A stretch of DNA of 41,827 bases from Candidatus Marinamargulisbacteria bacterium (lineage in GTDB: Bacteria > Margulisbacteria > Marinamargulisbacteria > SXXA01 > JAHFDB01): assembly GCA_964202165.1 (NCBI GenBank), contig CAXNHA010000001.1, forward strand, positions 1 to 41,827, given 5' to 3'. Under the pieces are notes generated by a model. The model was not told the DNA's origin, made no database searches, and saw only the letters and a program-made list of their open reading frames with translations. The position numbers and the translations under genes were made by a program. Below are positions 22,764 through 27,099 of the stretch, piece after piece (the stretch's first letter is position 1; the number at the start of each line of letters is the position of its first letter).

Positions 22764-23855
22764 TTATGGCAAGCTTAGCGTAACTTGGAGGTCTGTCCCC
22801 AATCGCTTTACAGCTACAATGGTCATACGATAGGCATGAGATAGCGTGGTAATACAGGGGCCAGCGAAAACGGATTTTCCATCCTGGCCCAAAAACTGAG
22901 GAGAAAATATCAAATCCAGCCGGTCTACAATTGTTGCTTCTAGAGCCGAGCTAATGATAGCCTGTCCTCCTTCGATCATCATATACCACCAACCAGCTTC
23001 TTTTGTTTTTTTGAGAATAGAGTCCCAATCCAAGCGTCCTTGCTTATCAAGAGGTACTCGCCAAATAGTGGCTTTTTGATGCAATTCTGATGACACAACA
23101 GCCTCTTGCGAGCACACGATCACTGTTTTTCCAGAATCAAAAATACGTGCATTCAACGGTGTTTTTGCCCTAGAATCTAGCACCATTTTCACAGGGGAGG
23201 TCCCGCCATCTTTTAGCAACCCATATCGCACACCAAGGTTTGGATCATCTGCCAATACGGTGCCAATGCCAACCACAATCACATCTGCCAATCCTCTTAG
23301 TTTGTGGACATCTTTGAGCGATTTTTGTCCACTGAGATACTTGCTAACCCCATTTTTTAGGGCAATTTTCCCATCCAAACTCAAAGCCACCTTAATATGG
23401 ACATACACCGTGTTTGCCTTGACGCTTTTGAAAAATGGGGCATTCAACTGTCGTGCCTGAGCTTCGCAAAGACCTGTTCTTACCCGAATACCTGCCGACT
23501 CTAAAATAGAAGCAGAGCTACCTTGCATCCTAGGACTAGGATCCGCTACTGCATAAACAACTTCCTTGATACCCGCTTGGATAATGGCTTGGGTGCAAGG
23601 AGGGGTCTTTCCAAAGTGGTTACAAGGCTCAAGCGTCGCATACAAGGTACTCCCGTATGCAAGAGTCCCCGCTGAGGATATTGCCTCTATTTCTGCATGC
23701 TCCCCGCCAAATATGCGGTGAACACCTCGGGACACAACCTGACCTTCTTTGACAATCGCAGCAGCCACAGCCGGATTTGGAGATACAGATTTGATGTACT
23801 GAGACGCCAATTGGATCAACTGACGCATCAAACGGTTTTCGTTAAGGGGAGGCAT
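22764..23855 (-). CDS. ribD: Bifunctional riboflavin biosynthesis protein RibD (pyrimidine deaminase / uracil reductase)
   Basis: Deaminase zinc motifs are present (HAEIEA, LEPCNHFGKTPPC), followed by the reductase domain. The ORF track starts at 23960. Alignment to the usual RibD N-terminus favours MPPLNENRLMRQLIQLA at 23855, which overlaps the upstream gene by 14 nt. Confidence 0.9.
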   Translation of the reverse strand: MPPLNENRLMRQLIQLASQYIKSVSPNPAVAAAIVKEGQVVSRGVHRIFGGEHAEIEAISSAGTLAYGSTLYATLEPCNHFGKTPPCTQAIIQAGIKEVVYAVADPSPRMQGSSASILESAGIRVRTGLCEAQARQLNAPFFKSVKANTVYVHIKVALSLDGKIALKNGVSKYLSGQKSLKDVHKLRGLADVIVVGIGTVLADDPNLGVRYGLLKDGGTSPVKMVLDSRAKTPLNARIFDSGKTVIVCSQEAVVSSELHQKATIWRVPLDKQGRLDWDSILKKTKEAGWWYMMIEGGQAIISSALEATIVDRLDLIFSPQFLGQDGKSVFAGPCITTLSHAYRMTIVAVKRLGTDLQVTLSLP

Positions 23856-25485
23856 GATTGCGCAGAGACGGTTGATCAAAAACCAACTTTTGATCAATAT
23901 AAATGCTGAGGTGCCCTCCTGGAAGAACAGGGTACTCTTGCCTAAAATTTTCTGCGGCATTCAACATACGATGTAGCAAGACAATGCGATTATCAGGTGT
24001 TTCGTAGATAATATCCAACATATAAGGATCCCAGTGTTCCAATACGGAGGCCGTTATAGACAAAATAATATAGGGATGAGGCCCTGGCTTTACCAAAATA
24101 TCCAACGGGTATCCTTGACTAATAACCACGTCGATACGTTGGTGAGGGTCGAGTAGGACGTTTGGAGATGGAAACTGGCTTAAGATAAGCCCTTTTGGGT
24201 GCAGGGGCGAGTACAGTTGTTTTACAATATTAAGTGTGACCGATTCCGGCAAAAAATAAGACACTTGAGACAAAAATTTTCCTACCAAATTGGGGGCTCT
24301 CTTTTGCCCTTCACCTTTGGACAAAAAAAGCTCAACCATCCGATTTTCTTTGACTTCTCTTCCTGCTTCAGGACGAACACCTATCACAATCCCCTCAGGA
24401 AAACGGGCATGAAATCGATATCCCACGACTTTGCCATACAAATGGTTCTGTAGAAGGACAGCTTGAGCTTGTTGGAGGGACAAGCCTTCCAATTGAGGAA
24501 CTATTTGATTTTTAGTAGGAGATGTTATGTGTCGATATACCTCTTGTATGCCAAATAGACAAAGACAAACAAGGATGATTGCAGCAATAAGTCGAAAATA
24601 GCCCATTTGTTTTTTCTTGCGGGTTTTTCGAATGGTTTTTTTTAGCTCTTGTTCGATGGGTGAATATTTTTTAATGGGAATAGGTACTATTTTTTGGCGA
24701 CTGTAGGTATAAATCATATCTTCAAAAGAGGCAAAACGCATGGAGGGATCGCTGGACAGACAAATCGTTGCCAATGCCTTGATTTTTTCTGGAATAGCTG
24801 AAAATCGTTTAACAAATGGCTGGGGGGGACTCAGTAAAGCCGTGTGGTGTTTTTCAATAACATGAGTGGGTGGATAGGGCCAATCTTTTCCAAATAATCC
24901 ATACAGCAAGACGCCAAAGGCGTAGACATCTGATTGAATGGTGTATTCCCCCCGCTGAAAAAACTCTGGAGGATAAAAAATAGCATCATCTAAAGCAGAT
25001 AACTGGTTCCATCTTGATTTTAAAATAACAAGAGGGATTGAAACTCGGGATAAAAGAATATTGCCATCACCGTTAACCCATATATAAGAGGGTGACAATG
25101 TCCCACAGACAAGCCCTATCTGCTCCAATTGCTTGACCCCTTCCAAGAGGCGTGAAGAAAACTGCCATAATTGTCCTGCGGAAGGTTTTTGTTGCAAAAA
25201 TATATCCAACGTAACCCACTCTTTGGGTGCAGGAGAGATAACAAACCAAGCCCCATTATAGACCACTGTTTCAAGGACAGGTAAAAACCCATCATAGTTT
25301 AGAGAAGCTATTTTGGATAAAGTATTGCGGAGTTCTTCTATCAAAGAAGGGGTTAAGAATTCTTTTTTATATTCCCATATTAAGACTGATTCTTGTGTGA
25401 GATGATGGATACCCTGATACAAAAAAGAAATTAAATCTTCATATACCAAGTGGTTGATATGATAGGCCTCATGTTTAAATGTCAT
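23842..25485 (-). CDS. PASTA-domain membrane protein with a degenerate Hanks-type kinase domain (predicted pseudokinase)
   Basis: 547-aa ORF with a PknB/PrkC-like layout: kinase-like fold (aa 1-265), TM helix (FRLIAAIILVCLCLFGI) and two PASTA-like repeats (VPQLEGLSLQQAQAVL..., APNLVGKFLSQVS...). The catalytic motifs are replaced: the Gly-loop reads YEDLIS, VAIK reads VLIW, HRDxKxxN reads CGTLSPSY, and DFG reads SRV. Confidence 0.8.
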   Translation of the reverse strand: MTFKHEAYHINHLVYEDLISFLYQGIHHLTQESVLIWEYKKEFLTPSLIEELRNTLSKIASLNYDGFLPVLETVVYNGAWFVISPAPKEWVTLDIFLQQKPSAGQLWQFSSRLLEGVKQLEQIGLVCGTLSPSYIWVNGDGNILLSRVSIPLVILKSRWNQLSALDDAIFYPPEFFQRGEYTIQSDVYAFGVLLYGLFGKDWPYPPTHVIEKHHTALLSPPQPFVKRFSAIPEKIKALATICLSSDPSMRFASFEDMIYTYSRQKIVPIPIKKYSPIEQELKKTIRKTRKKKQMGYFRLIAAIILVCLCLFGIQEVYRHITSPTKNQIVPQLEGLSLQQAQAVLLQNHLYGKVVGYRFHARFPEGIVIGVRPEAGREVKENRMVELFLSKGEGQKRAPNLVGKFLSQVSYFLPESVTLNIVKQLYSPLHPKGLILSQFPSPNVLLDPHQRIDVVISQGYPLDILVKPGPHPYIILSITASVLEHWDPYMLDIIYETPDNRIVLLHRMLNAAENFRQEYPVLPGGHLSIYIDQKLVFDQPSLRNHASP

Positions 25486-25516
25486 ATGGTTTTGATTTTA
25501 GGCTAATTCTTCTTTT

Positions 25517-27099
<1,583 letters not shown>

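Follow-up and report, generated by a model that had tools for sequence, protein, structure and literature searches.

PASTA-domain kinases such as PknB, PrkC, and StkP are central regulators of cell wall synthesis, division, exit from dormancy, and beta-lactam tolerance. The relative shares of catalysis and scaffolding in their function are debated, and the usual probe has been the engineered kinase-dead allele. An atlas of >300,000 bacterial serine/threonine kinases describes the PASTA family (KAPD) as canonical and specific to Gram-positive bacteria (10.1101/2025.01.12.632604), and none of the seven pseudokinase families that the same atlas recognizes (ActPs1-3, GLW, CP1, DYD, and DLHK) carries PASTA (10.1101/2025.01.12.632604; PMC12599244). 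Here we describe a gene in a 41,827-nucleotide (nt) stretch of DNA from a Candidatus Marinamargulisbacteria bacterium (contig CAXNHA010000001.1, positions 1 to 41,827; the whole stretch is called the window below) whose 547-amino-acid (aa) product has the architecture of these receptors with every catalytic motif replaced. We consider it likely that this gene is the Margulisbacteria ortholog of a PrkC/PknB-type PASTA receptor kinase that has become a true, noncatalytic pseudokinase and, as we infer for its function, links peptidoglycan sensing to a cytoplasmic scaffold.

The open reading frame (ORF) has exactly the coordinates given by an earlier annotation of this DNA made without database searches (the sequence-only reading). 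The PknB/PrkC domain order proposed there, a kinase fold followed by one transmembrane (TM) helix, two PASTA repeats, and a C-terminal beta domain, is borne out by Pfam, hydropathy, a structure model, and Foldseek. The protein is laid out as follows, with model confidence given as the predicted local distance difference test (pLDDT).

23842 to 25485, reverse strand: pseudokinase gene, encoding the 547-aa PASTA-domain receptor pseudokinase, a PrkC/PknB ortholog (Pfam, NCBIfam, model, fold search)
24700 to 25485, reverse strand: cytoplasmic pseudokinase domain, aa 1-262, predicted to form a complete bilobal kinase fold (PF07714; pLDDT >93 throughout; Foldseek)
24538 to 24606, reverse strand: single TM helix, aa ~294-316 (hydropathy maximum 2.4; continuous helix 276-320 in the model)
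24310 to 24510, reverse strand: PASTA repeat 1, aa 326-392 (Pfam PASTA; genome profile match at 24316-24504; aligns to the S. aureus PrkC ectodomain, 3py9/3m9g)
24106 to 24309, reverse strand: PASTA repeat 2, aa 393-460 (Pfam PASTA; genome profile match at 24115-24297)
23845 to 24105, reverse strand: C-terminal all-beta sandwich, aa 461-547 (seven strands, pLDDT >90)

The kinase fold is matched by PF07714 (PK_Tyr_Ser-Thr) with 40 bits over aa 4-255, above the cutoff of 23.1, and by PF00069 (Pkinase) with 29.9 bits, slightly under its cutoff of 31.7, while the two repeats match PF03793 (PASTA) with 55.1 bits, above the gathering score. The NCBIfam equivalog for PASTA kinases of the Stk1 family (NF033483, PknB_PASTA_kin) gives 97.4 bits against a curated cutoff of 450, most of them from the TM-PASTA part. 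A Pfam search matched no family to the C-terminal beta-sandwich (aa 461-547), which is kept in full-length homologs from other classes of the phylum. A polybasic segment, KKTIRKTRKKKQ, stands directly before the TM helix on the cytoplasmic side, and the hydrophobic stretch that follows it at aa ~294-316 assigns the kinase fold to the cytoplasm and the PASTA repeats to the cell exterior; as a membrane protein, the gene product is bitopic.

AlphaFold2, given 66 family members, models the full protein with a mean pLDDT of 94.4. The model comprises a complete N-lobe (beta1-beta5, with alphaC at 46-60) followed by the C-lobe, a long helix (276-320) that enters the membrane, and then two PASTA units and the seven-stranded beta-sandwich (461-538). 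The top Foldseek matches are the kinase domains of M. tuberculosis PknA and PknB and of S. aureus PknB/Stk1 (PknA 4ow8, PknB 4eqm, and Stk1 9ymt), with a template modeling score of ~0.78 on the target, and 3f69 and the S. aureus PrkC ectodomain (3py9) are matched as well. The sequence-only reading had argued from the 31-nt gap to the upstream ftsB-like stop that no N-terminal part is hidden; the gap is correct by coordinates, and the N-lobe is complete from beta1 in the model.

Within this fold the following catalytic sites, or what has replaced them, can be assigned.

25426 to 25443, reverse strand: remnant of the Gly-rich loop, Y15-E-D-L-I-S20 in place of GxGxxG (alignment with canonical PASTA kinases; family consensus x-E-D-L-x-S)
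25375 to 25377, reverse strand: Trp37 (V-L-I-W37) in place of the beta3 VAIK lysine (alignment with canonical PASTA kinases and class orthologs)
25084 to 25107, reverse strand: remnant of the catalytic loop, C127-G-T-L-S-P-S-Y134 in place of HRDxKxxN (B-Raf and StkP alignments)
25039 to 25047, reverse strand: R147-V148-S149 in place of DFG (B-Raf alignment, family columns)
24961 to 24978, reverse strand: retained P+1/APE segment F170-Y-P-P-E-F175 (pairs with the retained subdomain-XI Arg250 and alphaF Asp186)

The catalytic-loop and DFG columns were read from a phmmer alignment to B-Raf, and the Gly-loop and Lys columns from an alignment with three canonical PASTA kinases (P0006, P0007, and P0009), in which the alphaC Glu of the window protein is also replaced. 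Across the aligned columns Lys, HRD, and DFG are all substituted, with K40 excluded as a stand-in Lys. These assignments agree with the sequence-only reading for the YEDLIS loop, Trp37 at the beta3 Lys, CGTLSPSY at nt 25107-25084, and the retention of the APE region as FYPPEF, the last supported by the alignments and family columns; the loss of DFG that it reported also holds, with the triplet now placed one residue beyond the S146-R-V it had named. SDVYAFG, the alphaF motif, is kept, as is Arg250 of subdomain XI, and E174, R250, and D186, which provide the E174-R250 salt bridge and the alphaF Asp, are nearly invariant in the family. Taken together, the alignments, the model, the fold search, and family-wide conservation strongly support a predicted kinase domain of PknB/PrkC type that is structurally intact and catalytically dead.

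The sequence-only reading treated the gene as a single oddity. It is instead the PrkC ortholog of a whole class, with a milder form found phylum-wide. A word-indexed protein search returned only four close relatives, at 30-53% identity. RAP32949.1, a close relative from a single-cell genome, is labeled Candidatus Marinamargulisbacteria, which NCBI taxonomy places within Candidatus Margulisiibacteriota in the Cyanobacteriota/Melainabacteria group; the class name used here for the ortholog set follows from one named member and database labels. When 1.84 billion representatives were searched exhaustively with HMMER, ~85 family members at the 50%-identity level came out full length and in a single stretch; the remaining high-scoring matches are giant PASTA-repeat proteins that are unrelated. 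With one genome taken per species, a profile search of the phylum turned up homologs in 137 of 146 genomes, the 72 high-quality ones all among them; six of the nine genomes without a match belong to the window's class and are 55-76% complete. Within the class, 46 of 55 genomes have matches: full-length ones at 280-640 bits in 42, and weak or truncated ones in four (G009 and the three f24 genomes). Nearly every class genome has the gene, which belongs to the core of the class in single copy.

Column statistics were drawn from 66 representatives at 50% identity, together with 34 class orthologs read from genomes. The Gly-loop columns hold E, D, and S in 55, 53, and 49 of the 66 representatives, respectively. 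At the beta3 Lys, W is found in 36 of 66, followed by Y, V, T, C, and R, and Lys is not among these six commonest residues; one class ortholog (L029) keeps it. The Arg of HRD is replaced by Gly in 63 of 66, and its Asp column is accounted for in 53 of 66 by N (19), S (12), T (7), G (7), A (4), and Q (4), with no Asp among these six. The DFG Asp column carries a basic or amide residue (K in 15, R in 13, N in 13, and H in 7 of 66). An acidic residue at a catalytic or metal position occurs in none of the 34 class orthologs and is not among the commonest residues of the 66 representatives. That the same substitutions recur in all orthologs is far beyond chance.

Mean pairwise identity is 0.30 in the N-lobe and 0.29 in the C-lobe, 0.38 and 0.33 in the two PASTA repeats, and 0.12-0.14 in the juxtamembrane region and TM helix, making the pseudokinase domain about as conserved as PASTA2 and 2-2.5 times as conserved as the linker and TM. 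This pattern of identities indicates that purifying selection acts on the domain, for a purpose other than catalysis.

Outside the class, 29 homologs from ~22 other families could be read, 25 of them from genomes and four from database proteins labeled Saganbacteria, WOR-1, or Omnitrophota. HRD is replaced in all 29 (by H-G-x, with one H-A-G), a loop of the type E-[NDS]-x-F-S stands in for GxGxxG, and the alphaC Glu is gone; the beta3 Lys (V-I-K-I-Y-K-R) is kept in 24, the catalytic-loop Asn in 27, and the DFG Asp (D-F-[VIG]) in 24. With Lys, Asn, and Asp in place, these less degenerate HG-type homologs might bind nucleotide as a conformational switch. The next-best database match outside the Margulis group is a canonical 587-aa PASTA kinase (P0280), and in a maximum-likelihood tree of 51 kinase domains a branch with 100/100 support parts the seven canonical sequences from all Margulis forms. 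The fully degenerate class forms a core clade with 100/99 support in the same tree, with a few intermediate forms beside it. Read with its thin outgroup sampling and several long branches, the tree is consistent with a single loss of the catalytic Arg-Asp early on and full degeneration later in Marinamargulisbacteria. We lean modestly toward a stepwise history in which the Margulisbacteria, including Saganbacteria/WOR-1, turned their single PrkC/PknB-type PASTA kinase into a noncatalytic receptor: first the HRD Arg-Asp, Gly loop, alphaC Glu, and PP2C partner would have been lost, then, in Marinamargulisbacteria, also the Lys, catalytic-loop Asn, and DFG Asp, and side branches would have split the receptor into a pseudokinase-TM and a TM-PASTA protein or kept the PASTA part alone.

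Split homologs occur in other classes as two adjacent genes (L043:1968-3851, L044:1998-3653, L048:1917-3650, L045:1986-3697, and L049). The first ORF encodes an HG-type pseudokinase with one TM helix (~340-375 aa) and ends in TAA or TAG, and the second encodes two TM helices and two or three PASTA repeats (~200-275 aa). The second ORF begins with an in-frame ATG right after the first stop in L044 and L048, in L045 and L049 with an ATG that lies ~10-15 nt downstream and in a different frame, and in L043 its first start is an in-frame TTG six bases past the stop. Stop-codon recoding was considered for these loci and rejected, because the first ORF ends in TAA/TAG and the second has its ATG at once or within ~15 nt in four of the five, with TTG in the fifth. 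The gene boundaries indicate that a receptor (pseudo)kinase has here undergone natural fission, with the sensor in one half and the cytoplasmic domain in the other. Some families retain no more than a ~285-aa protein of TM, two PASTA repeats, and beta-sandwich (L047:1989-2843), with no kinase part found in the 99%-complete genome that encodes it (G058); within the window's own class, a 391-aa protein (L046:1563-2735, from G045) has only a ~150-aa stub left of its kinase domain. Of the receptor's parts, the ectodomain persists most.

Database names do not reflect these substitutions. Several HG-type proteins (P0164, P0201, P0211, P0219, P0225, P0242, and others) are named "serine/threonine-protein kinase" by NCBI and JGI, and the UniRef name is "non-specific serine/threonine protein kinase" despite the absent catalytic Asp. 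These labels are a systematic over-annotation across Margulisiibacteriota, Saganbacteria, and WOR-1.

The genes around the pseudokinase in the window are listed below.

25795 to 27078, reverse strand: enolase gene (eno), first gene of a conserved string (synteny)
25517 to 25798, reverse strand: FtsB/DivIC-like gene, 31 nt before the pseudokinase start (PF04977, E value 3.4e-6; syntenic divIC in orthologous loci)
22764 to 23855, reverse strand: ribD, with its probable start at ATG 23855 (TIGR00326, 285 bits from aa 45 of the long ORF; ribD directly downstream in nearly all orthologous loci)

The order eno, ftsB/divIC-like gene, pseudokinase gene, ribD is spaced by a 4-nt overlap, a 31-nt gap, and a 14-nt overlap. 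The placement of the gene between the ftsB-like gene and ribD, overlapping the latter, was correctly described in the sequence-only reading, and it is the extent of the overlap that changes, from the 119 nt given by the longest ORF to probably 14 nt. The longest ribD ORF starts at 23960 and has homology from aa ~45, and ATG 23855 gives ribD an ortholog-like length of 363 aa and the shorter overlap with the pseudokinase 3' end; ATG 23855 is probably the true start, which would leave the first 35 codons of the long ORF untranslated. A promoter and terminator scan of the gene cluster, including the spaces between genes, gave nothing above chance.

Across the class the string runs eno, divIC, an S1 gene (YabR-like), a gene for a secreted PQQ_2/BamB-like beta-propeller, the pseudokinase gene, and ribD, with the S1 and propeller genes variable. 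In the relatives L007, L009, and L011-L039 the S1 gene mostly lies between divIC and the pseudokinase gene, often together with the propeller gene, whose end overlaps the pseudokinase start. Neither gene is present at 25486-25516 in the window, and the locus of G033, from the same family, is equally compact. The window's genome is a metagenome-assembled genome (MAG; 65% complete, 79 contigs) in which absences alone are weak evidence, and the class and phylum tallies carry the argument. The PQQ beta-propeller was not found elsewhere in this 65%-complete genome, which has only unrelated S1 proteins.

In other classes the downstream genes are rsgA (at one locus), rpe, and ribD, and the neighbor is not divIC. 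The pseudokinase gene is followed by rsgA, rpe, and ribD in L040 and by rpe in L041, L043, L044, and L048; in the window ribD alone remains adjacent. In Bacillus subtilis the operon order is prpC-prkC-cpgA(rsgA)-rpe. The order in these other classes resembles the prkC-cpgA-rpe part of that operon without the PP2C gene, which supports PrkC orthology and marks the PP2C gene as the missing piece. As the sequence-only reading had observed, no PP2C phosphatase gene is adjacent, and a search of the recovered 65% of the window's genome for PP2C_2 also found none. PP2C_2 is present in 10 of the 55 class genomes and in 36 of the 146 phylum genomes, never beside the pseudokinase gene. FHA readers are scarcer still in the class, and neither a kinase, a phosphatase, nor an FHA protein is an obligate partner of the receptor.

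A penicillin-binding protein (PBP) transpeptidase is present in the window's genome, indicating that the organism makes peptidoglycan. In line with the muropeptide-sensing scaffold proposed in the sequence-only reading, we hypothesize that the ectodomain, with its two PASTA repeats and beta-sandwich, binds peptidoglycan or lipid-II-type ligands, or wall enzymes. Such binding would position or oligomerize the receptor where the wall is being made, much as in PknB and StkP, whose PASTA domains play this part. Rather than working as an enzyme, the rigid pseudokinase domain would then give cytoplasmic partners a docking or allosteric platform. Trp37 probably occupies its nucleotide pocket, with the acidic Gly-loop residues closing it opposite basic residue 147, as E-D in the phosphate-binding loop, Trp at the Lys position, and a basic residue at the DFG Asp suggest a filled, locked pocket (compare MviN and GLW; PMC12599244). 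The receptor may plausibly act in envelope growth or division, the only hints being the class-specific divIC neighborhood and the roles of PASTA kinases elsewhere.

Several points weigh against this interpretation. Not all PASTA domains bind muropeptides, and WNK and CASK, both so-called pseudokinases, were found to be catalytic with relocated or different residues. SelO and SidJ, long called pseudokinases, also catalyze reactions (PMC12599244, Table 1), and most members of the family conserve polar residues (E16, D17, K40, and N131) close to where the active site used to be. The lost or truncated kinase parts of L047 and L046 mean that the cytoplasmic domain is not indispensable everywhere. 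The eno-ftsB(divIC) neighborhood is conserved across the class, but divIC linkage is limited to this class and the conserved neighbors elsewhere are rsgA-rpe-ribD, making the link to division from gene order weak.

Among the alternatives, the one that survives best, though we judge it improbable, is an atypical active enzyme (a kinase with relocated residues, or an enzyme with another nucleotide-dependent activity, for example AMPylation or glutamylation) in which E16/D17, K40, N131, and basic residue 147 would form a noncanonical active site. It draws on the replacement residues being conserved and not random across the 66 representatives, on K40 being nearly invariant within W-x-Y-K, and on the precedents of SelO and SidJ (PMC12599244). 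However, out-of-class homologs with the canonical beta3 Lys (V-I-K-I-Y-K) conserve K40 to the same degree, and a residue conserved alongside that Lys is not a relocated catalytic Lys. The missing acidic residues at the catalytic and metal positions (0 of 34 class orthologs, nor among the commonest in the 66) also count against an active enzyme, and an acidic phosphate-binding loop with Trp at the Lys position argues against nucleotide binding, as has been reasoned for MviN and GLW (PMC12599244).

Slightly less probable again is that the cytoplasmic domain is a relic drifting toward loss and that only the TM-PASTA-beta-sandwich part is functional, for example as a peptidoglycan anchor or a partner of wall enzymes. 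The TM-PASTA protein of L047, in a 99%-complete genome, and the truncated kinase stub of L046 would fit such a course, as would the splitting of kinase and PASTA parts into two genes in other classes. Yet the domain is intact in full-length class orthologs, the exceptions being the truncated stub of f24 and five loci in which the search crossed a single stop, and it is conserved like PASTA2, retains the E174-R250 structural salt bridge and D186, and folds with pLDDT >93 in the model. Drift would not fix the E-D, W, and G motifs over sequences that are ~30% identical.

A shade behind the relic in our estimate, and likewise improbable, is a phospho-acceptor scaffold that serves active Hanks kinases, in the manner of the M. 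tuberculosis MviN pseudokinase, which is phosphorylated by PknB and recruits FhaA (PMC12599244). Candidate kinases exist: Pkinase matches reach 27 per class genome, other Hanks kinases ranging from none to 26, and the window's genome holds three atypical kinases and one FHA match. Against this, FHA domains are found in 2 of the 55 class genomes and absent from the other 53, and several fairly complete genomes (e.g., G051, 94% complete) have a single Pkinase match with an E value typical of the pseudokinase family, most likely the pseudokinase itself. The juxtamembrane region, where the phosphosites of PknB and MviN lie, is the least conserved part of the protein, and no Ser or Thr is conserved in the activation segment.

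An annotation or assembly artefact, in which a wrong start, a frameshift, or a chimeric contig in a 65%-complete MAG of 79 contigs hides the catalytic motifs, is refuted by identical architecture and motifs in dozens of independent assemblies, including the single-cell genome of RAP32949.1, and by an N-lobe complete from beta1 with only 31 nt between the start and the upstream stop, leaving it next to no probability.

A search of the 65%-complete window genome for an active PASTA kinase, which the sequence-only reading had suggested, found three other kinase-like genes, with HMD...DFG, HRD...DLD, and HGD...DTD, none of them linked to PASTA. The latter two, in the region G000:C20:879-2078 (L002) and on G000:C6 (L003:652-2274), encode paralogous soluble kinase-like proteins that share an unusual N-terminal region, SHLSY..GLPFTLIKD.EG..Y..LKI. 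The HMD...DFG kinase (573 aa, with a hydrophobic C terminus; G000:C3, L001:2-1213 and 1210-2931) has a 4-nt overlap with the stop of a protein that looks radical-SAM-like and is rich in Cys in its C-terminal half (CNLKCTFCY motif), and the two could be a peptide-modification pair. The sole FHA match of the genome (G000:C30:1153-1329) is part of a 448-aa frame that contains one TAA stop, through which the search read.

The noncatalytic receptor that we favor would mean that PASTA-receptor signaling can run without any phosphotransfer and that these proteins are natural separation-of-function variants, exposing how PASTA kinases serve as scaffolds when the wall grows and the cell divides. The phylum, which is related to Cyanobacteria, holds as a core gene a natural, conserved series of one receptor in HRD-less, fully dead, split, and kinase-less forms, and the family offers material for structural and interaction studies of the noncatalytic role. 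It extends the catalog of bacterial pseudokinase families, none of the current seven being PASTA-linked, and flags the systematic misannotation of its members as "serine/threonine-protein kinase." PASTA kinases and other pseudokinase families were already known; what is new is a family of PASTA-receptor pseudokinases that is the PrkC ortholog of a phylum. The full-text literature searched, whose coverage stops short of a 2019 cross-kingdom survey (PMC6997932) that may list individual PknB-like cases with PASTA, yielded no PASTA pseudokinase family.

By published descriptions of motifs, partners, and taxa, the family is set apart from ActPs1-3, GLW, CP1, DYD, and DLHK. EssB/YukC of T7SSb, the type VIIb secretion system, in Firmicutes is, like the window protein, a bitopic membrane pseudokinase, one that cannot bind ATP and whose dimerization scaffolds a membrane machine (PMC9600267). 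Its extracellular part and T7SSb partners are unrelated, its kinase fold is far more eroded, and it has no PASTA. The GLW family shares Leu or Trp at the beta3 Lys, a Gly-containing replacement of HRD, and a TM region C-terminal to the domain (PMC12599244), but its Gly stands at the His position, whereas the motif here is x-G-[NST], with Gly at the Arg position; GLW is also described as proteobacterial and PTCK-derived, with no PASTA reported.

The MviN/MurJ-linked pseudokinase of M. tuberculosis (ActPs3; PDB 3UQC) is similarly membrane-linked, tied to peptidoglycan synthesis, and degraded in all three catalytic motifs (PMC12599244). Bulky aromatics fill its ATP site and it acts as a scaffold (PMC12599244), a filling that is only suggested for the window protein. 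Unlike the latter, it is actinobacterial and forms a fusion with the MurJ flippase, its activation loop is deleted, and it lacks PASTA; it also needs PknB phosphorylation and FhaA, two kinds of partner that the class studied here largely lacks.

Closest of all are the PASTA kinases PrkC/PknB/StkP/Stk1 (KAPD; NF033483). The window protein differs from them in that its catalytic residues are all replaced, no PP2C gene is adjacent, only two PASTA repeats are present, and the host belongs to a Cyanobacteria-related candidate phylum and not to the Gram-positive bacteria. It has in common with them the cytoplasmic kinase fold, the single TM helix, and the extracellular PASTA repeats, and with PrkC/Stk1 also a C-terminal beta domain; its best structural matches (4ow8, 4eqm, 9ymt, 3f69, and 3py9) are to these kinases, and its homologs in other classes precede rsgA and rpe.

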